Source of the DNA: a bacterium
GTDB taxonomy: Bacteria > UBA8248
Assembly (NCBI GenBank): GCA_965204535.1
Contig: OZ241996.1
Location: 768,001-832,000 of the forward strand
Direction: 5' to 3'
DNA length: 64,000 nt
Each line of letters opens with the position of its first letter. Position 1 is the first letter of the stretch. Positions 43,966 through 64,000 of this stretch are shown here, in pieces. The translations under genes and the position numbers were made by a program. The notes under the pieces are model-generated. The model did not search any database, was not told the origin of the DNA, and saw only the letters and a list, made by a program, of their open reading frames with translations.

Positions 43966-44592
43966 ATGATTTCCTTCACGTTTCCCGACATCGTCATCGC
44001 CGTATTCGTCGGCGCGTTCCTCATCCGCGGCTGCGTGCGCGGTTTTTTCCGCGAGACTTTTTCCGTGGTCGCGCTCGGAATCGCGGTTCTCGTCACCATG
44101 CAGTTCACCGACCTCACGCGCTCCTACCTCGCCTATCTCCTGGGCGAGGGCGACCGGCTCGATTCGCTCGTCAAGCCGCTTCTCTTCTTGAGCGTATGGG
44201 TGCTCGCCGCCTGGTTCTTCCGCATGATGTTCGGCGTCTTGTCGATCGCCACGCCCGGGCTGTTCTCCAGGCTCGGCGGCGGCCTCATCGGGGGCGCCAA
44301 GGGCGTGTTCTTCTTCGCCCTGGGGCTGGCGGTCTTCGGGAGCCATGTGTCCGGCTTTTTGCCTGCGGGCGGCGGGGACAGGCTCCTCCCGTATGTGCGG
44401 GGGGTGAGCGCCTACATCGAGGGGTTCGACAAGGCGGACATCGAGGAAGGCCTGAACGCCGCTAAAGAGAAATTCGGCGACAAGCTCGACTCGGCCAAAG
44501 AGGGCGTCGGCGCGGGGAAGGAGAAGCTCCAGGGCATGACGGGCGGGGAGAAGGAAGAGGGCGAGATCGAAACGCGGGAGATGAGGAGGTAG
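43966..44592 (+). CDS. cvpA: CvpA family membrane protein
   Basis: D...RG..RGFFRE, R.GG...G..KG; four TM helices. Confidence 0.8.
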   Translation: MISFTFPDIVIAVFVGAFLIRGCVRGFFRETFSVVALGIAVLVTMQFTDLTRSYLAYLLGEGDRLDSLVKPLLFLSVWVLAAWFFRMMFGVLSIATPGLFSRLGGGLIGGAKGVFFFALGLAVFGSHVSGFLPAGGGDRLLPYVRGVSAYIEGFDKADIEEGLNAAKEKFGDKLDSAKEGVGAGKEKLQGMTGGEKEEGEIETREMRR

Positions 44593-44638
44593 GGTTGAGA
44601 ATGTTCTTTGCAACCAGAAAATGTTTAGCTTTCTTCCA

Positions 44639-47600
44639 TTACTGATTCGGCCCGATTCTTCGGATTTGGATTTTCTCCTTATCTAAATCTATTTTTGCAT
44701 AGGTTACTGAATTGGGTACTACATCAATTGGAACATCAAGTCGCCCGACGATCCGAAAATCTGGTGTTGACAGCCATGTGTCTTCCCCAACCGCGTTGGG
44801 TTCGACACGAAGCATGGCAATATCTGATGGAATGCCACCATTCACTTCGGTAAAATTAATCATGACACTCACATCGCACCACTTCTTGTCCTTACTACTC
44901 AGAATATCGTCCCTGAAACGTCGCCATAAGGATACTGTTGACTTGTTTGGCCAATTATCTCGTAACGACAACTCAGCAACGATTTCACTGGCTAGCCATT
45001 GACGCATGTCGCTACCGTCAAAAAAGCTAGGGTCGAGTTCGCTCACCACATCGAGTGCGGCCTGCCGGGAAGTAAGGCCAGCGCGTACTAGCAATGACAT
45101 GCGGTAGTCTGGCAATCCTGTATCAAGGCAAGCCGCCGCCGCACCGGGGATAGTTCCGATTTCTGGTTCCCAGCCGCCAGCAAGACGTCGCGAACGCACC
45201 GCCTCTAGCGCCCAGACAAGCCGATATGTAAACGTATTTTCAATCATTCCGACACGGTTTGCACCTATGGCGCTTAGTGGTGCGCCCTCAATCCAATCGC
45301 GCAAGACCCCTTGCCAATTGCCGACGAGAGCGTTTTGGGTGTCCGGAATAAATGGCCGAATAGTTAGTAGCTTTTCCGCTAGTTGAATGAGTGTCGCATG
45401 TAAAGTATCAACATCGGCTTGTAATGCGGCGAGGTCGGCGCGATCCAGAACCTCTGCTAAAAAATCTGCCATCTCGTCTACCTGAATACCGGTTTCCAAA
45501 CCGACACCCATGGCGAAATGTCCACGACGCTGTTGAGCAGTCGTGTTGTTCCATATAAGACGTGCCCGTGTTTTCAGAACAACCATTTGCATCTTTTTGA
45601 TATTGGGGTCTAAGCGATCCAACTGCCTTGACCACAAAGACCCTGACAAAGCTTCTTCAAGGAGTGTGGGTAAATCTTCAGTATCTGCATCTAGTGCCTC
45701 AATTAAACCGAAAACGATCGCATCTAGTTTTGGGATTAATTCTTCAAGTGGATCGCCGTCGATTTCTTCTGGTTCTTCCAGCCATGCTTCGCGGGCGTTG
45801 GCTAGATACTCGTACCCATCCTCATTTCGGGCAACACCACGCTTGGCGAGGCGCTTTATGATTTGATCGATTACAATCAGAAAACCACTTTTCAGCGACC
45901 GTTCCTTCACATTATGCACAAGTCGACGCCAATCTATCCTGCGTTTGCTAAATTTGTCTTTCATCACATGTAGAATCAGCCCTTCGGTATCCACAAATGC
46001 GCGGCCAACACGCCCGGCAACATTTGCGAATTCATCGCTCGAAATCTGGTAGCCTGAGCGAGTCAGATAGGGCGCTAGTAACACAGCCGCATTAAGGTTT
46101 AATCCCTGCGCGAGGGTTGGGGACGCCACTGTCACTTTAATAGCGCCCGAGGTAAGCAGACGCTCAACCTCGCGAAGAAAAGGACTTGGCAATTTCCCGT
46201 GATGCACCGCGACTCCAAAATTTAAACATTTAACTGCAGGATGATCAGGTCCAAGCCATTCAGCGCCAATGGCCAATGCCGTCTTGATGGCGGACTGTTC
46301 CTCCAGTAAGGGTGGGAGATAGCCTTTTTTGACCAATGCTGTGGCGCGTTTGCCATAGCCTTCCACCCAATTAGCCTGAGTGATGAAAATCAAACAGCTT
46401 TTTCCCTCCTTGGCGAAGCGCCACGCGCCCATTAAAGTGACATCTTTGAGGTCTCGTGGTAAGGCTTTTTGATCCCTGCCGCGAGGAAGGAGTTCTTCGA
46501 TGAAGCGGGGCACAAAAGGACCGTTGTTTTTAAGATCGTAGTTTAACCTTCCTGCACTACTACGCCATTCGAGCGTGCCAAAGCGTTGACGCGTCGGTCG
46601 CCAATCGGATCTGATAGGATCGCCTTCGACATCTGAGCGAATCCACGAGGTCATATCGTCAAGGTCTTTTCCTGTTGGGAGAACTGCGGAAAGGCAAACA
46701 ATGCGCCGTTCGGGTGCATCCCTCCGGCACAAGAGTCGCTGAACGAGGATTTCATAATGGATTTCTCGTTCTCCAGGTCCAATAAGGTGACCTTCATCCA
46801 AAATGATAAGGCCAATATCGTCGATAACGGTCGGATCATTTCGGAGGGCAAAATCGAGTTTTTCAGGTGTTGAGACGACGATTCGGTGATTACGGAGAGC
46901 ATCCGCATCGCCTGCTGACAAGCCGCTTTTCCCATAAAGTGAGGATACAGTCGCACCGTGCGGGGCAAAACATGTACGAAAAGATCGCTCAGTTTGTGCC
47001 GACAAGGCGCGAAGAGGCGTTACGATTAGTACGCGTTTGCCCATTGACAGAGAAGTAAGTGTTGCTAGTTCCGCGATACGTGTTTTTCCTGCGCTGGTGG
47101 GCAACGTGACAACAAGATCATCTTCGGGATCGACCGCGCGCCGGGCCGCATCAATCTGTGACGGCCAGAGTTCTACCTGCGCCGTATCGCGCGCCAAAAG
47201 TGAAGCAATGAAAATGGTTCTATGTTGACTGTAAACATAATTGTCGCCCTCTGGAGGATTTGCAGGAAGCACCTCATGCAATGATTGATCCCAGAGATCG
47301 CCCAATAACTGCCCTGTTAGTCGAATTACCCACCAGAGCGATGAAAGTCCAGATTCGGCGGCTAATTTAAGAGCTGTCTTGAGTATTTGATGAGTAACTG
47401 TGGTATAGCCTGAATCTCCTGTCTGCAAAGCGAACTCGTAATACGCTAAAGCTCGACAGACTGCACTAATCAGGATGAGAGCAATTTCAGCGTCCGTATC
47501 GCCGCCAGGGTTTTGTAATCGCTCCAAGATAGCGCTATCCTGGTGTTGAGGATCACGAAGCCAATCTTGCGCCACATCTCGCACCCCATCCAAATCGCGT

Positions 47601-48046
47601 AGCAAAAGCTTTACGAGACAAACCTCAGCGGTATTCAGGTTTTGGTCTGTCACATCCACCGGAGAAAAAAGGGAATAAGCAATCGCTGCATAGCTCCCAA
47701 GATGATAGGCTGCTGCTGCCACTACACGGTGAAATCCGCGCCGAAAATCGGCAGGTTCGCCATTTCTTACTAGTGCTTCAAGGACCCTACCGGACACATA
47801 AAACGCTTTTCGAGCGATTGGGTGGCCACGTTCCAGTGAATTTAAGGCAAGTCCCGCATCCAGCAAAGCGAATCCGTATTCTGCGAGATCGGCGTCCAAC
47901 GTAGCGCGGAATGAGGGTGCATGCTCTTGAAGCTTACCGTCACGTCGGATGATCGACCAAGCCTCACCAGTATCAACAATGCGATCCCTTCCGTCGCTTG
48001 CTAACGAGCCTTCCAGAAAAGCAACTAATTCCTCAACTGTCTCCAA
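44639..48046 (-). CDS. hamB: Hachiman defence Ski2-like helicase HamB
   Basis: PTSAGKT, TPEK, DEGH, LSA, HHG, TLAQGLN, N.AGR.GR; overlaps upstream DUF1837-like gene; low GC; TTG start after GGAGG. Confidence 0.85.
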   Translation of the reverse strand: METVEELVAFLEGSLASDGRDRIVDTGEAWSIIRRDGKLQEHAPSFRATLDADLAEYGFALLDAGLALNSLERGHPIARKAFYVSGRVLEALVRNGEPADFRRGFHRVVAAAAYHLGSYAAIAYSLFSPVDVTDQNLNTAEVCLVKLLLRDLDGVRDVAQDWLRDPQHQDSAILERLQNPGGDTDAEIALILISAVCRALAYYEFALQTGDSGYTTVTHQILKTALKLAAESGLSSLWWVIRLTGQLLGDLWDQSLHEVLPANPPEGDNYVYSQHRTIFIASLLARDTAQVELWPSQIDAARRAVDPEDDLVVTLPTSAGKTRIAELATLTSLSMGKRVLIVTPLRALSAQTERSFRTCFAPHGATVSSLYGKSGLSAGDADALRNHRIVVSTPEKLDFALRNDPTVIDDIGLIILDEGHLIGPGEREIHYEILVQRLLCRRDAPERRIVCLSAVLPTGKDLDDMTSWIRSDVEGDPIRSDWRPTRQRFGTLEWRSSAGRLNYDLKNNGPFVPRFIEELLPRGRDQKALPRDLKDVTLMGAWRFAKEGKSCLIFITQANWVEGYGKRATALVKKGYLPPLLEEQSAIKTALAIGAEWLGPDHPAVKCLNFGVAVHHGKLPSPFLREVERLLTSGAIKVTVASPTLAQGLNLNAAVLLAPYLTRSGYQISSDEFANVAGRVGRAFVDTEGLILHVMKDKFSKRRIDWRRLVHNVKERSLKSGFLIVIDQIIKRLAKRGVARNEDGYEYLANAREAWLEEPEEIDGDPLEELIPKLDAIVFGLIEALDADTEDLPTLLEEALSGSLWSRQLDRLDPNIKKMQMVVLKTRARLIWNNTTAQQRRGHFAMGVGLETGIQVDEMADFLAEVLDRADLAALQADVDTLHATLIQLAEKLLTIRPFIPDTQNALVGNWQGVLRDWIEGAPLSAIGANRVGMIENTFTYRLVWALEAVRSRRLAGGWEPEIGTIPGAAAACLDTGLPDYRMSLLVRAGLTSRQAALDVVSELDPSFFDGSDMRQWLASEIVAELSLRDNWPNKSTVSLWRRFRDDILSSKDKKWCDVSVMINFTEVNGGIPSDIAMLRVEPNAVGEDTWLSTPDFRIVGRLDVPIDVVPNSVTYAKIDLDKEKIQIRRIGPNQ

Positions 48047-48815
48047 ACGATGACACCTCCTCAAAGACCGTGAATACGAACTCCTTGTGATCCTTTATTC
48101 TTAGGTTGACGGAATGTTGTGTGCGACCGTCATCAGCGGCATCGAGGTCTTCTCTAATAGTTTTCGTTGCAGGGTTACCGCTCAGGGTAAACATAAGATG
48201 AGTTAGCCGACTATTTGGGGTTGTACGAGTCGTTCCTTCTTTGATGAGATCAATTCCCATCTCTTTCATATTGGAATCCTGACTTTCGATAAGCCGACGA
48301 GCAATGAAAATTAATGAGTGTGCGGATGGTCGCCCATAGTCAGTCTCTAGTGCTTTTCTAGCTTTTTTCACAGTTACATTAGTTAGATTCCTAGCGCTTT
48401 TCGCTTCACCCTTCAGAAGTTTTATTTGATTTTTTTTGTCATAAGCCACAGCGATAACGTCCACACCGCGCATCGGCATATCTCGGTGATCCTTGTACCT
48501 AAGTTTTTTCACAGGAACTTTGAAATCGAGTTGTTCTTCAATGAATTCTGCGGCGAGAATCTCGCCTAGTTCGCCTGATTTGATATTTCGCTTTTGGGGT
48601 AGGAGAGTTCTAATAAGTTCTGCTACTTGGGAACATTCTAATTCAGCGAGAAGTCGTGCGATTTCTTCATGAGCGATGTAGTGGTCAAGGATTCGATCAG
48701 TCAATTCTTCGAATATAGCTTCTCGTCCACCCTCACGTTCGCTTAGGTGCCACAGCGTTTTCTTCTTTGCTTTAGTAGTTTTGCAATGACACCAGGTTTT
48801 GTACAGGCTAGACAT
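48033..48815 (-). CDS. hamA: Hachiman defence nuclease HamA (DUF1837-like)
   Basis: SGELGEIL, G.DV, GEAK (PD-(D/E)xK); directly upstream of the helicase. Confidence 0.85.
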   Translation of the reverse strand: MSSLYKTWCHCKTTKAKKKTLWHLSEREGGREAIFEELTDRILDHYIAHEEIARLLAELECSQVAELIRTLLPQKRNIKSGELGEILAAEFIEEQLDFKVPVKKLRYKDHRDMPMRGVDVIAVAYDKKNQIKLLKGEAKSARNLTNVTVKKARKALETDYGRPSAHSLIFIARRLIESQDSNMKEMGIDLIKEGTTRTTPNSRLTHLMFTLSGNPATKTIREDLDAADDGRTQHSVNLRIKDHKEFVFTVFEEVSSFGDS

Positions 48816-48987
48816 TTGTTCTCGAAAATCTCCTGTTTTGTGGATTATACTTGGGTGTACTTAACTAATAGGCATTACTATGGATATTTTTTTCAACCGT
48901 TTTTGTTCCTTAGTGAAAGCAAAGCGGTCTTCGTAGCAGCCCCTCTACACCTCACCACCCGTGCATGCCCCTGCTCGCTGAATTCAT

Positions 48988-49419
48988 CTAGAGCGAAATC
49001 TCTCTCCCCTGCGGCAAGAATTTATCCCCCACCAACGCCACCCCCTCCATCTGCGCTGCTCGCCTGTCGAAGGTGTAGAGGGGATGTGCGCCGCTTCGGT
49101 TCGCGGCGGCTGCGATCATGAGGTCGGAAAAGCCGGCCCCGCCGCGCCGGTAATGGAAGGCGGCGCGGGCCACGTCGTCCGCCGCCTCGATTTCGAGTTC
49201 TTCGGTAGCTACGAGTTCTTCCAGCACCTCTGCGATTCGTTCTCGGGAAAACCGATAGGTTCGGTCAAGCACCCAGACGAGTTCGACAGTCACCTCGCGG
49301 CAAATAAAGCCGGGCCGCTCGGCAGTCAGCCCTGCTATCAGACCTTGGGCCGCTTCTGTCTGGGACGCATCATCCGCGACCAGACATCGAACTAGGACGT
49401 TCGTGTCGAGCGCGATCAC
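48988..49419 (-). CDS. vapC: VapC/PIN domain toxin
   Basis: ALDTNVLVR, E..WVL, FSD.MI, TFD. Confidence 0.9.
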   Translation of the reverse strand: MIALDTNVLVRCLVADDASQTEAAQGLIAGLTAERPGFICREVTVELVWVLDRTYRFSRERIAEVLEELVATEELEIEAADDVARAAFHYRRGGAGFSDLMIAAAANRSGAHPLYTFDRRAAQMEGVALVGDKFLPQGREISL

Positions 49420-49649
49420 TCCTCACTCGCCCCCTCAGCGATAGCGCGCTCCATATCTTCGAGCGTTTTTGGAGGGCCTTCGTATTTGAGCATGCCGAAC
49501 AGCCGGGCGATGGGCCGCATCGGGATGATGCGCACCTCATCGCCCAGGATGATATAGCGCACGCGATCGCCCGGCCGCACGCCGAGGGCTTCGCGTACCG
49601 GCTTGGGCAGCGTCGTCTGGCCCTTTGAGGTAATCGTGGATTCGACCAT
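49416..49649 (-). CDS. AbrB/MazE-type antitoxin
   Basis: STITSKGQTTLPK.VRE.LG..PGD; GTGA overlap with vapC. Confidence 0.9.
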   Translation of the reverse strand: MVESTITSKGQTTLPKPVREALGVRPGDRVRYIILGDEVRIIPMRPIARLFGMLKYEGPPKTLEDMERAIAEGASEE

Positions 49650-49795
49650 GTGGAACCCCCCCCTGTTCCTTACTTAATATAATAATGCCTTACTTTTGCA
49701 GGTTAAGCAAGGACAAAATTACCGTGTTTATACGGAATTTAGCCGGTTTATGAAATCCATATAATTCTCCCAAGAAACGCATAACTCCTTTTCAC

Positions 49796-49825
49796 TTGAC
49801 GGGGGAAACGCAGTTCCCCTATCTT
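49796..49825 (+). promoter_or_regulatory. Sigma70-like promoter with palindromic spacer upstream of XRE gene
   Basis: TTGACG-18 nt-TATCTT; GGGGAA...TTCCCC inside. Confidence 0.45.
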
Positions 49826-49876
49826 TTATGATGATTTTAACCAACATATAACTCTTATATGATGGATATTTTCAAC

Positions 49877-50218
49877 ATGATGAATGAAAGCAGGATTACA
49901 CGGACGCCGCCGGCCGCCGTCGAAGACGCCATCCGGCGTCTGGGTCGCAACATACGCACGGCGCGCCTGCGCCGGAGGCTGCGCATCGAGGATGTGGCGA
50001 ACCGCATCGGCGCTTCGCGCTTCACGGTCGCGGACCTCGAGAAGGGCAAGCCGGGCGCGTCGATGGCCGCCTACGCGGGCGCGCTGTGGGCGCTCGGCCT
50101 GCTGGAGGACATGAGCGAGGTGGCCGACCCCGACAGGGATGAAGAGGGCAAGACGCTCGAAAGCGCCAGAAGCCCGAAGTCCGCGCCGCGCCGCAGGAGG
50201 CTCGACAATGACTTCTGA
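49877..50218 (+). CDS. XRE-family HTH protein (HipB-like antitoxin)
   Basis: LGRNIR.AR.RR, VA.RIG.SR.TV..LEKG.P; overlaps hipA fragment. Confidence 0.85.
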   Translation: MMNESRITRTPPAAVEDAIRRLGRNIRTARLRRRLRIEDVANRIGASRFTVADLEKGKPGASMAAYAGALWALGLLEDMSEVADPDRDEEGKTLESARSPKSAPRRRRLDNDF

Positions 50219-50333
50219 GGGCGAGTGCTTCGTCTATATCGTCCTCCCCGGAGAGTGCGAGTTCGTGACGGCGGGCCGCTTTCGGGTTGAGAAGACGCGA
50301 GACGGTGCGGCCATCGGGCGGTTTTCCAATTGA
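50208..50333 (+). pseudogene. Truncated HipA-like toxin (N-terminal 41 codons)
   Basis: MTSEGECFVYIVLPG..EFVTAGRF resembles HipA N-termini; stops exactly where GC drops. Confidence 0.7.
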
Positions 50334-50391
50334 GCATATATCCTCCCTGTGCTATCTACTCGGCGACTAACAAATAAATGGGGAGGGAGCC

Positions 50392-52293
50392 ATGGACGCT
50401 CTTGTTCGTTCTCTTGATTCAGTTCTGCGTGAAAATCATCAATGGGTTGTTCCTGTTTACCAGAGACACTATGAGTGGGAAACGAAAGAAGACAGACAAC
50501 TCCCGAAATTCTGGGATGATCTGAAAGATAAGACGATTGAGCGTTTGGAGAAGAGAAACCCTTTCCCACACTATTTCGGAGCTATTATCTTTTCCGAACC
50601 GCCCAATCAGACTTTCGGCACTGTCCGCCAGCGACTCTTAGTTGATGGTCAGCAAAGAATCACGACATTCCAACTAACGCTAGCAGCCATCAGAGAAGTA
50701 GCTCGCGACTACGAGGTCTCCCGCCTATTGGATGCAACTGATGCCTATCTTTATAACAAAGAGAGCCCTGGTATGGTCGAGCCGGATCGGGAACGCTTCA
50801 AACTTTGGCCCTCAAGCTATGATCGTTCACTTTATCAAAAGATCGTTGAAAATACCCCGGATAACCTCAGTATTATCTATGAGACGATTTACTTCTATAA
50901 AAACGGTAGGTTGATTAAAGGCCGTGCGCCCAACTCGCTTCGCGCTTTCTGGTACCTTTATGAAGAGATTAAAGCATTTGTCCAGGAGCGAGGGGAGGAT
51001 GAAGAAAGCCCTGAACAGGTGCTCGACGCGCTAATCGCCGGTTTCTTAGACGGTTTTCGAGTTGTCCTGATCCAACTTGATCAACATGATGACGCGCAAG
51101 AAATTTTCGCCTCGCTTAATGGATTGGGAAAACCACTATCCCCATTCGATCTTATCCGGAACGATGTTTTTCATAGAGCGCAAAAAACAGGCGAAGACAC
51201 TGAAAGGCTTTTTGAAGAGCAGTGGAAGAAATTTGAAGATGACTTTTGGAATGAGGAAGTGCGGCAGGGGCGATTGAAACGCGCGAGAGCTAACCATTTG
51301 ATAGCGCATGCTGTTGTTGCCGAGACTGCGCGGGAAGTTAATGTCGGCAAGATCGCAACTGAATACCAGCATTACGCACAAGATCAAAAATTTAAGACTG
51401 TTGCTGAAGAACTCGATGTGCTGCTCAATCATGCCGCTACATATCGTGCCATGGAGGAAAGGGATGAAAACGTGGTCTTTGCGAAAATTGCGAATGTCCT
51501 CCGAATTTGGGATATGTCAACTTTTCACCCATTGATTCTGTGGGTCAATGCGCAACCGCTTGAAGACGAAGATAAAGTTAGACTTTTCAGCGTTATTGAA
51601 AGTTATATTGTTCGACGTGAAATCTGCGGCCTCACAACCAAGAACTATAACAAAGTAGTTACCGGAATGATTAGGAATACTTCGGAGCAGGACGATTTAG
51701 TGTTGGTCTTTTTTGACTATCTTTCCAGCTTGACTGGGGATGCTGCGAGAATGCCAACGGACGCCGAGGTCGAAGAGGCGTTTGCGTCTCGAGAGGTGTA
51801 TGGTCGCTGGGCACACGGTGGGACTCCTTCTCGACGCCTTAAGTACATTCTGCGTGAAATCGAATATGCTAAGCATAATAAGTTTCACGAGACAATGATA
51901 TCTTCGGAGAATTTAGAGATTGAGCATGTTATGCCACAATCCTGGGCCGAGCACTGGCCGTTGCCCAATGGTCTAACTGCTCCATGCGAATCTACATGGG
52001 AAGCTGCCTACAATGGGCATAGCCTTGATGACGAAACAAAAACGCTTATGGATGAACGTCAGCAGGCTGTCGGTACCTTGGGAAATCTCACTTTGTTAAC
52101 AAAACCATTAAATGCGGGTATTAGGAACGCGGCTTGGGAAATTAAACGCGAACGTTTAGCTGACGATTCCCTGCTACTTCTTAATCGCGAAATTGCTTCA
52201 AATGAAATGTGGGATGAAGCGGCGATAGAGCGAAGAGCCGATGACTTAGCTAAGGTGGCGAACAGTATTTGGAAAGCGCAAGACATTCAATAG
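50392..52293 (+). CDS. GmrSD-like DUF262-DUF1524 protein (putative modification-dependent nuclease)
   Basis: PVYQRHYEW, VDGQQR.TT, F..LN..G, EHVMPQ, GNLTLL...N; low GC. Confidence 0.88.
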   Translation: MDALVRSLDSVLRENHQWVVPVYQRHYEWETKEDRQLPKFWDDLKDKTIERLEKRNPFPHYFGAIIFSEPPNQTFGTVRQRLLVDGQQRITTFQLTLAAIREVARDYEVSRLLDATDAYLYNKESPGMVEPDRERFKLWPSSYDRSLYQKIVENTPDNLSIIYETIYFYKNGRLIKGRAPNSLRAFWYLYEEIKAFVQERGEDEESPEQVLDALIAGFLDGFRVVLIQLDQHDDAQEIFASLNGLGKPLSPFDLIRNDVFHRAQKTGEDTERLFEEQWKKFEDDFWNEEVRQGRLKRARANHLIAHAVVAETAREVNVGKIATEYQHYAQDQKFKTVAEELDVLLNHAATYRAMEERDENVVFAKIANVLRIWDMSTFHPLILWVNAQPLEDEDKVRLFSVIESYIVRREICGLTTKNYNKVVTGMIRNTSEQDDLVLVFFDYLSSLTGDAARMPTDAEVEEAFASREVYGRWAHGGTPSRRLKYILREIEYAKHNKFHETMISSENLEIEHVMPQSWAEHWPLPNGLTAPCESTWEAAYNGHSLDDETKTLMDERQQAVGTLGNLTLLTKPLNAGIRNAAWEIKRERLADDSLLLLNREIASNEMWDEAAIERRADDLAKVANSIWKAQDIQ

Positions 52294-52326
52294 TGTTTTC
52301 GCGCTAGTTCCTTCAGCCTTACCTCC

Positions 52327-53084: not shown

Positions 53085-53574
53085 TATCAGGGGGGCTTTT
53101 TTGTTTTTACGCCCCTGTCAAGGGGGGGTAGGGGGGGGTGGTTTTCAGGGCGAGGAGGACGAGCGGGGTCCGCGCCCGCATTTTCCCGCATTTGGCGTTA
53201 CCGGGCTTGCGCCCGCGCGGGGCAGAATCGGGCGCACGAACGGGAGGAGTTCCGATGGACCTGGAAAAAGCGAAAAAAGCGAAGCGAACGGATCCGGCGT
53301 TTTCCGCGCGACGGGAATTCCTGAAAATATCGATAAATTCACGGGGTTTTTCGATAAATTGCTGAAAATTTCTGATCCCTTAACCGGTTGTAATCAAATG
53401 AGTTATCATTCAAATCTGAGCGCAGGCCACTCAAATATAGCGAGAAAAAAAGTTTTTCAGGCATCCGCGCATTTGTCCGCAACAGCCCGCATTTCCTCCC
53501 GCACCGCATCACGCCGGCAAAGCCTCATTCATCAATCGGCTTTGACCCCCGCATTGGCGATGTATCCAGCGGGG

Positions 53575-58522: not shown

Positions 58523-58539
58523 ATCATGTATATATATAA

Positions 58540-58552
58540 TATCAATAAGTTA
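58540..58552 (+). promoter_or_regulatory. IHF consensus site at probable element boundary
   Basis: TATCAATAAGTTA matches WATCAANNNNTTR exactly, in an AT-rich tract upstream of the integrases. Confidence 0.55.
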
Positions 58553-58729
58553 CGACGTAAAGTTCATGTGTGATATCGCTCTTGTTGATTTTCAGAAATG
58601 CCCCTTTAATTTATCGAAAGACACGTTTATGTTTCCGTCCCACCGACAATCGTACGACTGAATACCCATAAGCACGATAAAGTGTTGTATTAAAAGCGAT
58701 AATTATTATACTTTCCTTTTCCTCCTCCC

Positions 58730-58758
58730 TTGCGTTTACGCCATATTTACGCTATAAT
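58730..58758 (+). promoter_or_regulatory. Sigma70 promoter of integrase pair
   Basis: TTGCGT-17 nt-TATAAT, about 90 bp before the first integrase ATG. Confidence 0.65.
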
Positions 58759-58845
58759 AGTCGTGTATTTGATGCCGGACGTATGCGTTTTGATTACGGA
58801 TCGCCCATATCCTCCGGCTTGTGACACGATTTCCGGGGAGCGCCC

Positions 58846-60024
58846 ATGCCCAAAAGAAGCAATATCAAGCTTACCAAACGAGTCGTCGACGCGCTATCCG
58901 TCGAGAAGGAAGACGCCGTCTTCTGGGACCGGGAGCTGGCGGGCTTTGGGGTGCGGGTCTACGCCACGGGCCGGAAGGTCTACGTGGTGCAATCGAGAGG
59001 GCCGTGGGGTCCCAAACGCGTGACGTTGGGCAAACACGGCGAGATGTCCACTGATGAGGCGAGGAAACAGGCCGCACTCGTCATCGACCGCATCAAGCGG
59101 GGCGAGGAGCCAGAGCCCAGGCCGCCCGAGGCCACGCCCACGGTGGCGGGCCTTTGCGAGCGCTTCATGCGCGACCATGCCGAAACGCACTGCAAGCCCG
59201 GCACCGCCAGGACGTACCGCTCCTATATCGGGAACCACATCCTTCCGGCGCTGGGCAGGAAGGCGGTGGCCCAAGTCGGCCGGGCGGAGGTATCGGCGTT
59301 TCATCACGGCCTGCGCGCGACGCCCGGCGCGGCCAACGCGGTCCTGGGACTGCTCTCCAGCATGTTCAAGATGGCCGAGGCGTGGGGCCTGGTTCCTCCC
59401 GGGAGCAACCCGTGCCGGGCGGTGCGCCGCTACCGGACGCGCAAGTGCGAGCGGTTCCTGACACAGGATGAATTCCGCCGCCTCGGACGTGCGCTCCGTG
59501 ACCTGGAGACGGAGGGGAAGGCATGGCCGTCCGCGGTGGCGGCGATCAGGCTCCTGGCGCTGACCGGTTGCAGGCGGAGCGAGATACTGGACTTGCACTG
59601 GGACGACGTGGACCGCACGGCGGGGGAGCTCAGGCTCAGGGACGCCAAGGCGGGCCCGCGCATGGTGCCCCTGACCAAACCCGTATTGAGAGTGCTGGAG
59701 GGGATTCCCCGCTCGCCGGACAATCCCTGGGTGTTTCCCGCAAGGCACGGGGAGGGCCGCCTGACGGACCTCCACCACTACTGGGAGGCCGTGAGGGAGC
59801 GGGCGGGGCTTCATGACGTCCGCATTCACGACCTCCGGCATTCGTACGCCAGCCGGGCGCTCGCGCTCGGCGAGAGTCTCTCGGCGATCGGCAGGCTGCT
59901 CGGCCACCGTCACGTGGTGAGCACGGCGCGCTACGCGCACCTGATGCGCGATGCCGAAAAGGCGGCGGCCGCCCGTGTGGGCGAGAGCATCGGCGTCCAC
60001 GTCACGAACGGGAGGGTCGAGTGA
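58846..60024 (+). CDS. Tyrosine recombinase with arm-binding domain (Int1)
   Basis: FWD..L.GFGVRV arm domain; TGCRRSE, DAK, HDLRH, LLGH, TARY. Confidence 0.95.
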   Translation: MPKRSNIKLTKRVVDALSVEKEDAVFWDRELAGFGVRVYATGRKVYVVQSRGPWGPKRVTLGKHGEMSTDEARKQAALVIDRIKRGEEPEPRPPEATPTVAGLCERFMRDHAETHCKPGTARTYRSYIGNHILPALGRKAVAQVGRAEVSAFHHGLRATPGAANAVLGLLSSMFKMAEAWGLVPPGSNPCRAVRRYRTRKCERFLTQDEFRRLGRALRDLETEGKAWPSAVAAIRLLALTGCRRSEILDLHWDDVDRTAGELRLRDAKAGPRMVPLTKPVLRVLEGIPRSPDNPWVFPARHGEGRLTDLHHYWEAVRERAGLHDVRIHDLRHSYASRALALGESLSAIGRLLGHRHVVSTARYAHLMRDAEKAAAARVGESIGVHVTNGRVE

Positions 60025-61190
60025 TGACGAAGCCCGCGATGAAAACGCTCTCGAACCGGCTGGTCGCGAAACTCACTGTCGAGAAGGACACGGTCTTCTG
60101 GGACCGGGATCTCACCGGCTTCGGTGTCAGAATCTATCCCACCGGCTCAAAAGTCTACATCGCCCAGGCGCGCGGACCCGAAGGACCGAAACGGGTGGCG
60201 GTGGGCCGCCACGGCGTGATCCACGCCGATCAGGCGCGCAAGCGCGCGGCGCTCGTCATCGCGCGCATCAAGGCGGGCGAGGAGGCGGTTCCCGAACCGA
60301 GCAAGCCCGCAGGCGGTCCCACGGTGGCAGAGCTCGCGAAGCGCTATCTCACCGAATACGTCTCCGTGCGCTGTAAGCCGCGCACCGTGAAGACGCTCCA
60401 CTCCGTGGTTTTGAGGCACATCGTCCCGGCGCTGGGAAAGCTGCCGCTCACGGCGGTCGGGCGCGCCCACGTCTTGGGGCTGCATCAAAGCCTCCATGAG
60501 ACGCCCGCTATCGCCAACCAGGCTGTCCGCACGCTGTCCGCGATGTACCGCTTGGCAGAGGAGTGGGGCATGGTTCCAGAGAGGACGAACCCGTGTCGTG
60601 CCATCGCCGAATATCCGGTCGGCCGCCGGGAACGGTTCCTCACCGAGGCGGAATTCAACCGCCTGGGACGCGCGCTCGACCGGATCGAGACGGAGGGCGG
60701 CGCGTCGGCGAGCGCGGTGGCGGCGATCAGGCTCCTGATCCTGACCGGGTGCCGGAAGTCGGAGATCCTCACGCTGCGCTGGGAGGAGGTGGCGCTCGAT
60801 CAAGCGGAGTTCAGGCTCTCAGACTCCAAGACGGGCGCGCGGGTCGTTTCGCTCTCAGGGCCCGCGGTCAAACTCCTCGCGGGACTGCCGCGCCTGCCTG
60901 GGGTCCCCTGGGTGCTCCCCGGCAGGAAGCCGGGTACGCACCTCCGGAAGCTCGATGACGCCTGGCAGGCCGTCCGCTCTCGCGCGGGACTTCACGACGT
61001 GCGCTTGCACGATCTCCGTCATTCGTTCGCCTCGCGCGCCCTGGCGCTGGGCGAGGGACTCACCGTGATAGGCAAGCTCCTGGGCCACGCACGGATCGAG
61101 ACCACCTCGCGCTACGCGCATCTCGCGCGCGATTCGGTGCACGAGTCCGCCGAGCGGGTCGCCGCGAGCATCGCCGAAGACCTGCTGTAG
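60021..61190 (+). CDS. Tyrosine recombinase with arm-binding domain (Int2)
   Basis: Paralogue of Int1 overlapping its stop; TGCRKSE, DSK, HDLRH, LLGH, TSRY. Confidence 0.95.
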   Translation: MMTKPAMKTLSNRLVAKLTVEKDTVFWDRDLTGFGVRIYPTGSKVYIAQARGPEGPKRVAVGRHGVIHADQARKRAALVIARIKAGEEAVPEPSKPAGGPTVAELAKRYLTEYVSVRCKPRTVKTLHSVVLRHIVPALGKLPLTAVGRAHVLGLHQSLHETPAIANQAVRTLSAMYRLAEEWGMVPERTNPCRAIAEYPVGRRERFLTEAEFNRLGRALDRIETEGGASASAVAAIRLLILTGCRKSEILTLRWEEVALDQAEFRLSDSKTGARVVSLSGPAVKLLAGLPRLPGVPWVLPGRKPGTHLRKLDDAWQAVRSRAGLHDVRLHDLRHSFASRALALGEGLTVIGKLLGHARIETTSRYAHLARDSVHESAERVAASIAEDLL

Positions 61191-61249
61191 GGCGCCGGTC
61201 GCAACTACCGGGAAACCCGGTCGATGATGAATGCGATCGAAGCCCGCAC

Positions 61250-61560
61250 CGAAGATCAGCCACGTCCATATCGTCTCGTGGCCGAGCCACGACGCGAACG
61301 GCCGCGGCAAGTACGACACCTGCATTCGGGGCGACACGGTGCTGCGCTTCGCGTACACGGTCTCGGCCGGGGTGTGGGTGCAGACGGGGGCGACGCGGAG
61401 ACAGGGAGCGGCCTGGAGGTGGGCGGCTCGCTGCGCTGGACGTCCGGAAACCTCACGATCGAGGTCGCCGCGCGCGGCCTCATGGCCCATTCCGAGGACG
61501 ACTACGAGGAGTGGGGGGTGAGCGGCTCGGTGCAGTATGCGCAGGCTCCCGGCGCTGGTA
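61250..61560 (+). pseudogene. Collapsed remnant of a large surface protein/autotransporter
   Basis: DGGDAETGSGLEVGGSLRW...RGLMAH...YEEWGVSGSV reads like beta-barrel strands; another frame gives IVSWPSHD.NG.GKYDT.IRGD / LRFAYTV. Confidence 0.5.
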
Positions 61561-61671
61561 GCACACATCCTTCCCCCGGTGCGGGGCTCCGCGCCGGGGG
61601 GATTTCTAATCTTCAACTGAAAATATCGTAGACACGGTTTTTCAGGAACATTGTGAGGAGGTTGATCGGCC

Positions 61672-62394
61672 ATGAATTTTCGTTTTTTGTTTGCTCAGAT
61701 GACCACAAACGACACCGAAGTGACGCTGGACGAGCGCCTCAGGCGGGCGGTCGCCGCCTGGTGCTGGCGGCGCGGGGTGAGCGAGCGCGGCTTCGGCGCG
61801 GACATGCTGGGGAACCCCGGATTCGCCGCCACGCTGGCGCGGGGCCGCTCGCTGCGTCTCCCGACGGCCGACCGGGTGCTCGCCTTCATCGGCTACCCAC
61901 CGCTGGGCCCCGCCTTCCGGCTGGAGCTCGATACCTACCTGGCGGTGAGCGGGACCAAGATATCGATCCTGGGCGAGATGGCCCTGGGCGACCCCTCCTT
62001 CGTGGGGCGGTTCCGCCGGGGCGTATCGCCGCAGCTCGCCACGGTCGACCGCGTGCGCGCCTGGACGGCGGTGAACGCGAACGAGGAGGAGATACGGACC
62101 ATCCGGGCGCGGCTGGCCGAGGCGGCGCCGGCGATACATCCCCTCGCCCGGCCTGGGGCCGAAGGCATGAACGGACGCGCCGAAGACTGCCTGAGCGAGC
62201 GGGAGGCGGCCGCCCGGCTGTGCATCTCACCGGGGGTGCTGGGAAGCTGCCGCATGCGCCGCGAGGGGCCGGCATTCCGCCGCATAGGCAACCGGTTGCG
62301 CTACCTGCCCGAGGATATCGACGCGTGGGCACGGGCGCAGCGCTGGACCTCCCTATCCGAGGAGAGTAATGCGCGGAAGAGGAAGGAGAGCTAG
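61672..62394 (+). CDS. Multi-HTH protein: two Cro-like domains plus C-terminal excisionase/AlpA-like HTH (copy 1)
   Basis: Internal repeat G..(M/A)LG(N/D)P.F......G.S..L.T.DRV.A; C-terminal L.EREAAARL.IS...L...R...EGP.F.RIG...RY...DIDAW. Confidence 0.8.
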   Translation: MNFRFLFAQMTTNDTEVTLDERLRRAVAAWCWRRGVSERGFGADMLGNPGFAATLARGRSLRLPTADRVLAFIGYPPLGPAFRLELDTYLAVSGTKISILGEMALGDPSFVGRFRRGVSPQLATVDRVRAWTAVNANEEEIRTIRARLAEAAPAIHPLARPGAEGMNGRAEDCLSEREAAARLCISPGVLGSCRMRREGPAFRRIGNRLRYLPEDIDAWARAQRWTSLSEESNARKRKES

Positions 62395-62535
62395 AGGACT
62401 GCGCCGGGGGAACGCCAGAACGCATCGATGCGTGTTTTTAGACGGGGGGGAGCCTGCGGCCCCGGGTTTTTTTTCTTCTAGTGAAAATATCGTAGACATT
62501 GGAATTCACGAATATTGTCAAGGAGATCATCCATC

Positions 62536-63264
62536 ATGAACTTTCGTCTTTTATTTGCTCAGATGACCACAAACGACACCGAAGTGACTCTGGACGAGCG
62601 CCTTGGGCGGGCGATCGCCGCCTGGTGCTGGCGGCGGGGCGTGAGCGGGCTCCGCTTCGGCGTGGACGCGCTGGGGGACCGCGGCTTCATCTCCAGGCTG
62701 GCGCGGGGCCGCTCGGTGCAGCTCCCGACGGCCGACCGGATCCTGGCCTTCATCGGCTACCCGCCGCTGGGTCCCGCCTTCCGGCTGGAGCTCGATACCT
62801 ACCTGGCCGTGAGCGGGACCAAGATATCGATCCTGGGCGAGTTGGCTCTGGGCGACCCCTCCTTCGTGGGGCGGTTCCGCCGGGGCTCATCGCCGCATCT
62901 CGCCACGGTCGACCGCGTGCGCGCCTGGGCGGCGGCCAATGCGAACGAGGAGGAGATACGGGCCATCCGGGCGCTCCTGGCCGAGGCGGCGCCGGGGGTA
63001 CATCCCCTCGCCAGGCCTGAGGCCGAAGTGGAAGGCATGAACGGACGCGCCGAAGACAGCCTGAACGAGCGGGAGGCGGCCGCCCGGCTGGGCATCTCGC
63101 GGGGGGTGCTGGTGAGCTGCCGCGCCCGCGGCGAGGGGCCGGCCTTCCGCCGCATAGGCAACCGGTTGCGCTACCTGCCCGAGGATATCGATGCGTGGGC
63201 ACGGGCGCAGCGCTGGACCTCCCTATCCGAGGAGAGTAATGCGCGGAAGAGGAAGGAGCGCTAG
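62536..63264 (+). CDS. Multi-HTH protein (copy 2)
   Basis: Paralogue of 61672-62394; AAGGAG RBS. Confidence 0.8.
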   Translation: MNFRLLFAQMTTNDTEVTLDERLGRAIAAWCWRRGVSGLRFGVDALGDRGFISRLARGRSVQLPTADRILAFIGYPPLGPAFRLELDTYLAVSGTKISILGELALGDPSFVGRFRRGSSPHLATVDRVRAWAAANANEEEIRAIRALLAEAAPGVHPLARPEAEVEGMNGRAEDSLNEREAAARLGISRGVLVSCRARGEGPAFRRIGNRLRYLPEDIDAWARAQRWTSLSEESNARKRKER

Positions 63265-63612
63265 AGGACCGCACTCGGGGAAACGCCTCTGCGCGAGGCG
63301 GGCGGACACGGACGCAGAAGCGCATCCTTCGCGTGTTTTCAGACGTTCGTTCATTGTCGGCAGCCGTGAAATCGCATTATCTCATGGATGCCACCGGGGA
63401 CCATGAATTTCGCCCGGGTCTCGTTCGGAATCCCCCTCCCGCAACAAACAACCAAAACGCAAACGAGGGGAATCAAACCCCTGCGTTCATACGCGCCTCC
63501 CCCAGGCACAGCACCTCGAAGAGGCCGAGGCGGGTTGTCAGGGGGCGGCGGAAGGGCGTCCGGGAGAGGACGTTCTCTGCCTTCCCGACCACCCACAGCA
63601 AGGAGGCGCGCG

Positions 63613-63927
63613 ATGCGGACGACCATGCGAGAGTCGAACACTTTCCTCACCCACACCTTCGGCCGCGGGCTCGAAGACGAGCGATACGCCGTGGAACGGT
63701 TCAAGTCCGCGATGGACGGCGAGATCCGTCCCATGCCCGCTGCGGAAGCGAAGAACGGAAGCGGGCGCAGGATGAAGAGAGCTACGGCCACCCGGAAAGC
63801 CGTCCGGGAGATGCGGCCCGCACGGGACGAGATCATCGTCTGCACGGGCCTGCGCACCAGGGACAGCGGGGTTCAATACTGGGGGGCGTACGCCACGGGA
63901 TTTTTTGCCCAAAGCAGTCGGCGCTGA
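63613..63927 (+). CDS. Hypothetical protein
   Basis: AGGAGG RBS and ATG; 104 aa; no recognisable motif. Confidence 0.5.
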   Translation: MRTTMRESNTFLTHTFGRGLEDERYAVERFKSAMDGEIRPMPAAEAKNGSGRRMKRATATRKAVREMRPARDEIIVCTGLRTRDSGVQYWGAYATGFFAQSSRR

Positions 63928-63940
63928 GGGGGGGAGACGG

Positions 63941-64000
63941 ATGCCGTACAAGGACCCCGAGGAGGCACGAAAGAAAGAGCGCGAACGCCACCGCCGTCGC
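63941..64000 (+). CDS. Hypothetical protein (3' truncated by window)
   Basis: GGAG RBS; MPYKDPEEARKKERERHRRR. Confidence 0.5.
   Translation, partial: MPYKDPEEARKKERERHRRR

Follow-up and report, generated by a model that had tools for sequence, protein, structure and literature searches.

Background

Integrative and conjugative elements (ICEs) as well as integrative mobilizable elements (IMEs) whose integrase bears an N-terminal DUF4102 arm domain, such as those of the IntSXT subgroup (PMC8138268) and KplE1 with its IntS (PMC2951348), are described in the accessible parts of these reports as having attL over the integrase promoter, an arm array with an IHF site, a short direct-repeat overlap, and relaxase and type IV secretion system modules. 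These traits recur in the element analyzed here and its relatives; it starts within a 64,000-bp stretch of a bacterial genome (the window; GTDB lineage UBA8248, assembly GCA_965204535.1, contig OZ241996.1, positions 768,001 to 832,000). The described elements use a single integrase and end at a tRNA gene, guaA or prfC as far as those reports go, whereas the element in the window opens with two tandem paralogous integrase genes, int1 and int2, and belongs to a family that targets multicopy sequences. We consider it likely that the coupled Int1 and Int2 form a joint, two-subunit recombinase by which the element is inserted into a dispersed host repeat, and assign this reading, which is drawn from sequence comparison, a probability of roughly 0.55.

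Across the family, an arm domain, intact catalytic residues, direct-repeat ends, an empty site and either a relaxase or (in element F) a transfer operon were found; a single integrase beside a tRNA or conserved gene was not, the integrases being paired in 49/49 loci and a tRNA being present in 3/51. Tn4371-like integrases (PMC11448139) are the nearest recognizable relatives (~32% identity) and likewise have short AT-rich att repeats; in the accessible part of that report they work as single integrases, in contrast to the pair, the TrwC relaxase and the F-type transfer genes found here.

Operons of several recombinases at the left end of an element are known from SE (PMC10214605), GInt (PMC5385486), RIT and Tn554 (PMC3414803) and IME8 (PMC13239906), and all genes of these modules are reported as required where tested. 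By the accessible descriptions, these modules have three or four genes, in contrast to exactly two same-length arm-domain paralogues and a lambda-type att site here. SE consists of intA-tfp-intB-srap, whereas no gene lies between int1 and int2; GInt has three integrase-like genes plus GinD (GinABCD), as opposed to two genes only; RIT has three overlapping recombinase genes, and a separate trio occurs here in the cargo only; Tn554 joins one normal and one abnormally long recombinase to TnpC, as against products of 392 and 388 aa. In IME8 (int1-int2-hp3), which was also compared by its description, the two-integrase operon is jointly essential and the third gene is needed as well; no conserved third gene was seen after int2 in the present family. 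An initial annotation of the window had stated that known multi-recombinase elements differ from this one; this still holds, although its list missed SE, GInt and IME8.

XerC and XerD at dif form a heteromer on an asymmetric site but have no arm domains, are encoded by unlinked housekeeping genes and serve one site; the likeness lies in two intact paralogues proposed to sit on different halves of an asymmetric core. FimB and FimE, which act on fimS, are paralogous tyrosine recombinases encoded in tandem and associated with an invertible promoter; they lack arm domains, their genes lie outside the invertible segment and they are not a mobile-element family, but they match the cut-down cassette described below. 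To our knowledge, characterized arm-type integrases act as homotetramers, as established for lambda.

No description of the paired-integrase family was found in the literature searched; members could be present in the datasets of PMC8138268 and PMC3414803. If the two-subunit reading is right, a natural two-subunit integrase with a mapped 7-bp overlap and subfamilies would permit a direct test of how half-site specificity is divided and of re-targeting, and would bear on the engineering of recombinases for asymmetric sites.

Genomes, loci and definitions

The source genome is referred to as G000 and its contigs as C1 and C2 (the window is G000:C1:768001-832000); other G numbers denote compared genomes and L numbers denote loci. 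Loci were recruited from the genome collection by using Int1 as the query (n = 49) and from metagenomes by using Int2 (n = 25), and pairs among the 87 integrase matches of five near-complete relatives were tallied by hand. The integrase tree was built by a quick method from 97 rows (50 Int1, 45 Int2), and dN/dS and distance correlations were determined for 42 distinct intact pairs. Subfamilies were named alpha (the type of the window's element), beta, delta and phi. In order to compare overlaps, the left and right ends of 32 elements were paired by position. P and P' denote the element-side core halves and B and B' the target-side halves, and identity was scored between halves.

Structure and conservation of the integrase pair

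As initially annotated, the window holds two full-length, coupled arm-type integrases (Table 1). The int1 stop and int2 start overlap in TGATG, and Arm-DNA-bind_3 (DUF4102), SAM-like and Phage_integrase domains were found in both products, which are 54% identical and each carry the residues R, K, HxxR, H and Y. The strong promoter that had also been noted was not supported, as the promoter scan called 0 sites and the readable candidate agrees with the consensus at only 3/6 positions of its -35 hexamer (TTGCGT).

Within G000, 11 pairs in the order Int1 then Int2 were found, together with one single gene (element L), a chimera with an Int1-type start and an Int2-type body whose attL core lacks three bases. 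Integrase matches were obtained in 21 of the 41 genomes searched. Int2 sequence was directly downstream in all 49 Int1-recruited loci (some of it partial or broken), and the record titles of these loci include Nitrospinota, Alphaproteobacteria and Gammaproteobacteria. The pair was visible in 22/25 Int2-recruited metagenome loci, the remaining three being short or distant matches. For the five near-complete relatives, 79 of the 87 matches sit in 39 adjacent pairs; the other eight comprise three from two further pairs with a broken member, four partial or distant matches, and one near-full-length Int2-like gene. In the tree, the Int1 and Int2 sequences separate into two clades (SH-aLRT 100); of nine clade-diagnostic residues, seven map to the arm domain or the C-terminal helix. 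The correlation between Int1 and Int2 distances was 0.93 over the 42 pairs and 0.96 among the G000 copies.

Paired homologues in two clades had been proposed as a check in the initial annotation and were borne out by the fixed order, the tree and the distance correlation; mostly solitary homologues, which it had named as grounds for refutation, were not what these counts gave. The same holds for a chance tandem of two independent islands. The 94-kb element is indeed mosaic in structure, with pieces nested inside it and a distant third integrase, but the order is fixed, the genes overlap or nearly adjoin, and two clades with congruent distances extend over more than 100 loci, so that the pairing counts refute this explanation.

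The catalytic residues R, K, HxxR, H and Y are invariant in 50/50 Int1 and 45/45 Int2 sequences, and the median dN/dS was 0.34 for Int1 and 0.26 for Int2; judged from these sequences, both int1 and int2 are maintained under selection. The invariance also bears on the suggestion that one paralogue cuts and the other is structural or regulatory (arm bridging, autorepression of the attL promoter or target capture). In favor of such a division, the array adjoins the int promoter, much as the arm sites of KplE1 intS overlap its promoter in the accessible part of that report (PMC2951348). We regard it as unlikely, since catalytic residues would be expected to be lost in a non-cutting partner and are instead kept in both clades and in three bacterial groups.

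The nearest relatives outside the family are single integrases with 44-47% identity (Ruegeria, Paracoccus), and a 50%-cluster search returned a compact family standing out from a wide background at about 40% identity. More distant single integrases (~32% identity) are presumably Tn4371-family-like, a label that we take from their gene order; Tn4371 itself has the order int-radC-DUF932-ParB, from which the backbone of the window's element differs. Other tandem integrase pairs were observed on plasmids of cultured Aurantiacibacter, Leisingera and Shewanella (L244, L245, L249); these three pairs have 35-40% identity and form a separate clade, one of them adjoins a MobF relaxase, and they are possible bench-accessible analogues.

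Downstream of int2, a duplicate of the last 60 codons of the integrase is often found directly after the gene (L049, L054, L055, L075, L084). In the window, a short frame at 61374-61631, between int2 and the helix-turn-helix (HTH) genes, is probably a relic and presumably resembles the C-terminal end of an autotransporter barrel.

Element ends and att anatomy

The flank in G002 is 96% identical to the window's left flank and continues straight into sequence matching G000:C1:921067 onward, that is, an empty site; the element is therefore C1:826609-921073 (94,465 bp). Its start is at position 58609 of the window and not at 58523, where the boundary had first been drawn. The IHF consensus reported with that boundary is real (58540-58552) but falls in host sequence, outside the element, and the G002 empty site has it as well. 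Likewise, no att duplication is present inside the window, as had been stated, but one exists (7 bp, or 11 bp with the shared right flank), with its partner 94 kb away. The right end and empty site that the initial annotation had proposed to map are thus attR at C1:921067 and the G002 junction.

Table 1 Features of the integrase region and nearby target repeat, in window positions
Feature	Position	Strand	Basis or remark
Unoccupied copy of target repeat	53312..53372	-	Overlap motif starts at 53359
Host-side flank, left part of target repeat, not element	58523..58608	+	Same sequence precedes the G002 empty site
attL 7-bp overlap ATTTATC	58609..58615	+	Repeated at attR, G000:C1:921067-921073; empty site G002 L014
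Element-side right core half-site GAAAGACACG	58616..58625	+	Resembles target right half GAAWDAC
Candidate int-operon promoter TTGCGT-17-TATAAT	58730..58758	+	Readable in the sequence; under promoter-scan threshold
Array of ~10-bp-phased units ending TTGATTAC	58769..58799	+	Putative arm-type integrase sites; found near attR too
int1, arm-type tyrosine recombinase, clade 1	58846..60024	+	392 aa; domain and catalytic-residue analysis
int2, arm-type tyrosine recombinase, clade 2	60024..61190	+	388 aa; start overlaps int1 stop
HTH gene copy 1	61672..62394	+	Repeated N-terminal unit and C-terminal HTH_17; candidate regulator or directionality factor
HTH gene copy 2	62536..63264	+	Tandem duplicate of copy 1
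Element backbone start, small open reading frames recurring elsewhere in element	63613..64000	+	Element continues to G000:C1:921073

The overlaps at the two ends were identical in 28 of the 32 elements (alpha 10/11, beta 8/11, delta 8/8, phi 2/2); shuffling within subfamilies gave a mean of 17.1 matches, and 0/20000 shuffles reached 28. In the alpha type, the array ending in TTGATTAC lies ~180 bp into the element at attL and 96-98 or 114-116 bp into it at attR, and an IHF-like site was 52, 53, 61 or 62 bp from the overlap in 14/14 alpha attR arms (5.5% in shuffles). An arm-bridged intasome fits these arms, as the spacing of array and IHF site shifts by helical turns. By comparison with the 11 pairs, 31 right-end array matches were present in G000, many of which end in other 7-mers; the surplus may represent relics of nested or accreted elements.

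The half-site GAAAGACACG was conserved in 13/13 alpha attL sites scored and had 0.64 identity to B'. Between halves, P' and B' scored 0.64 and P and B scored 0.22, and the core lacks inverted symmetry (0.27 for P against reverse-complement P', 0.20 for B against reverse-complement B'). The asymmetric site that had been supposed from the window was thus borne out, and because the core is asymmetric, a heteromer is still the best inference.

For each of the elements H, I, F and D, the flanks adjoin one another in one or more of the five relatives. The main blocks of elements B and K (the latter crosses a contig break) are 99.3-99.9% identical and have different flanks, which is consistent with recent movement.

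Target repeats and subfamilies

The target is a dispersed repeat of ~11-bp units, with 71 profile matches in G000 (63 with E < 1e-5) and 0 in the reversed genome. Nearly all of these copies are located between called genes, and 11/71 adjoin the right end of an element. Among 23 genomes of the genus, 16 with 36-77 repeat pattern matches and one with 6 all carry integrases, and the six with 0-1 repeat matches have none or one weak integrase match; this co-occurrence is not independent evidence because the genomes are kin. Two genomes of another family have many pairs without the window-type repeat.

Targets in the family are multicopy: the 11-bp-unit repeat on either strand, palindromes resembling repetitive extragenic palindromic (REP) sequences, and the catalytic box of another element's int2. 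The alpha overlap is ATTTAYC, and beta uses the same repeat on the opposite strand (WWWCGAT); delta elements sit where a REP-like palindrome ends (GACGRRC), and phi elements in a G-rich palindrome. The dozens of intergenic copies of the targeted repeats account for the presence, in one genome, of about ten elements of 34-104 kb with defense and ankyrin/Sel1 cargo.

No tRNA was found at the window's junction, in agreement with the initial annotation. tRNA as the target was rejected, given that a dispersed repeat is occupied and that a tRNA was present in just 3/51 related loci scanned; the right ends at L139 and L171 in relatives adjoin tRNA-like sequence. An Rfam search of six att or empty-site loci gave 0 matches.

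Several single loci illustrate other insertions. A pair element splits another element's int2 at the HxxRH codons, with overlap GCCAYTC (G022:C1:3742400-3811550; L199, L039), and in the alphaproteobacterial L067 int2 is cut short at that same codon by a right end of this kind. Pair junctions were also seen in one reading frame, in three copies at the same point (L057, L059, L063; G030), and in a gene at L073; from motifs we take the former to be transposase-like and the latter secretin-like.

Different elements (alpha, beta or other) occupy the repeat copies at L019 (G013), L025 (G022), L222, L223 and L228, depending on the genome, so some copies are hot spots. At the window (53170-53480) and ~70 G000 sites, the repeat often lies between inverted tandem decamers (GCATTTGCCC units); repeat and GCATTTGCCC decamers make up a unit resembling a miniature inverted-repeat transposable element, with interchangeable left and right flanks. 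Presence or absence of the repeat unit at the same locus varies among relatives, with different genes following, which suggests that repeat copies are rearrangement breakpoints. As the sequence after the same repeat copy differs among relatives, repeat targeting may drive rearrangement.

Tandem HTH genes

The two tandem genes with a C-terminal Xis/AlpA-like HTH that had been annotated after int2 are present, with HTH_17 at the C-terminus and matches to phrog_66 (excisionase/regulator). The copies share 85% amino acid identity and 89% DNA identity over 814 bp, compared with 54% for the integrases. Twelve near-full-length family copies were found in G000, eight of them within 2 kb of a right-end array and two beside transfer operons; no tandem copies were found among 24 matches in the five relatives. 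An Atlas search with the N-terminal part gave only leads below 0.9, to small phage proteins. On sequence comparison the doubling is a recent local duplication and incidental, and one member of the family may be a directionality factor or regulator.

These data bear on the proposal, also made in the initial annotation, that two Int/Xis pairs run two separate reactions. It was suggested by the two HTH_17 genes that follow two integrase genes in the window, and single HTH genes or fragments do follow int2 in a few loci (L040, L092, L095; two in G002). We consider the proposal largely refuted and highly improbable, since the HTH copies were recently duplicated relative to the integrases, relatives have no tandem, most G000 copies are near right-end arrays or transfer operons, the cut-down cassettes showed none, and only one att core was found per end.

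Cut-down pair as a probable promoter switch

A reduced form of the pair (pair J, C2:2697778-2700125) is located on a ~3-kb segment at the serC locus (G000:C2:2695914-2702127; L251-L260; L072), with a divergent outer-membrane-protein-like gene on either side; these flanking genes had an Atlas score of 0.98 to alginate-export/porin-like clusters. Inverted sites delimit the segment; TTGACA lies within it and a -10-like hexamer within the repeat, and upstream of int1 the arm array is present in duplicate. With serC as the reference, the promoter end is directed toward one gene in 6/7 genomes and toward the other in G020. The layout recurs at a Defluviicoccus locus, where the flanking genes are two Porin_4 genes; in the tree, this locus lies on a different branch from J. 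No HTH gene was seen in the cut-down cassettes. From this arrangement, the cut-down cassette probably inverts a promoter between two outer-membrane genes.

The retention of both genes in these cassettes, without a visible HTH gene, favors the main rival to the two-subunit reading, in which each integrase is a homomer and one integrates while the other excises (or one serves each cassette orientation). Both genes are intact and always kept, as this division of labor would require, and FimB and FimE are one-per-direction recombinases; the identity of about one half between those tandem paralogues resembles that of Int1 and Int2. We nevertheless think direction specialization doubtful, as either homomer would need to recognize two half-sites that are unrelated to each other, the stop/start overlap suggests co-expression and not alternation, and the excisionase-type HTH genes of the family could set direction.

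Proposed mechanism

Under the two-subunit reading, a single operon would supply Int1 and Int2 at roughly equal levels, both proteins would contact the TTGATTAC arrays of the two arms through their arm domains, and the DNA that separates array from core would be bent by IHF. Within the core, the conserved right half-site would be taken by one subunit and the left half-site, which is unrelated to it, by the other, with strand exchange over 7 bp in the lambda manner. An HTH protein, either of the tandem-gene family or from the small HTH_17 gene heading the transfer operon, may set direction, and the excised circle could be mobilized by a helper element. Divergence of the pair would have yielded subfamilies using other repeats, and the cut-down cassettes would have turned to promoter inversion. 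The fuller version, in which the pair forms an obligate heteromeric lambda-like intasome with a XerCD-like division of the core, enables subfamilies through its two-subunit make-up to re-target many multicopy sequences, and was domesticated at least twice as a promoter switch for outer-membrane proteins, stands at about even odds in our judgment.

Several observations weigh against these interpretations. Four of the 32 end pairs carry different overlaps, element E being among the mismatches. Because P and B are only 0.22 identical, the left half may be weakly specified, which a homomer could tolerate. The correlated Int1 and Int2 distances are not evidence of interaction since linked genes travel together, and the existence of the single integrases with 44-47% identity means that the wider lineage works with one gene. 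The near-full-length Int2-like gene at G013:C4:3512200 has no Int1 within 2 kb upstream. Finally, the keeping of both genes in an invertible cassette fits direction specialization equally well.

Mobility class and cargo

A TrwC relaxase and an SSB are encoded by the window's element; because no full-length coupling protein and no TraC/VirB4 gene were found in it, we take the element to be mobilizable or decayed. In element F, an F-type transfer operon with TraL, E, K, C, W, U, TrbC, TraF and H is present and has a small HTH_17 gene at its head; another TraC-like gene was found downstream of pair G. The VirB4 family PF03135 had no match in G000.

Among the cargo of the window's element are type I restriction-modification, GmrSD, SIR2, Hsp70/AAA, ankyrin and Sel1 proteins and insertion sequence elements, along with a recombinase trio at C1:863200-866386 and the third, distant arm-type integrase. 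A separate low-GC stretch was observed at 44500-52300 of the window; it contains a large gene of restriction type (50392-52293) and small genes resembling toxin-antitoxin genes.

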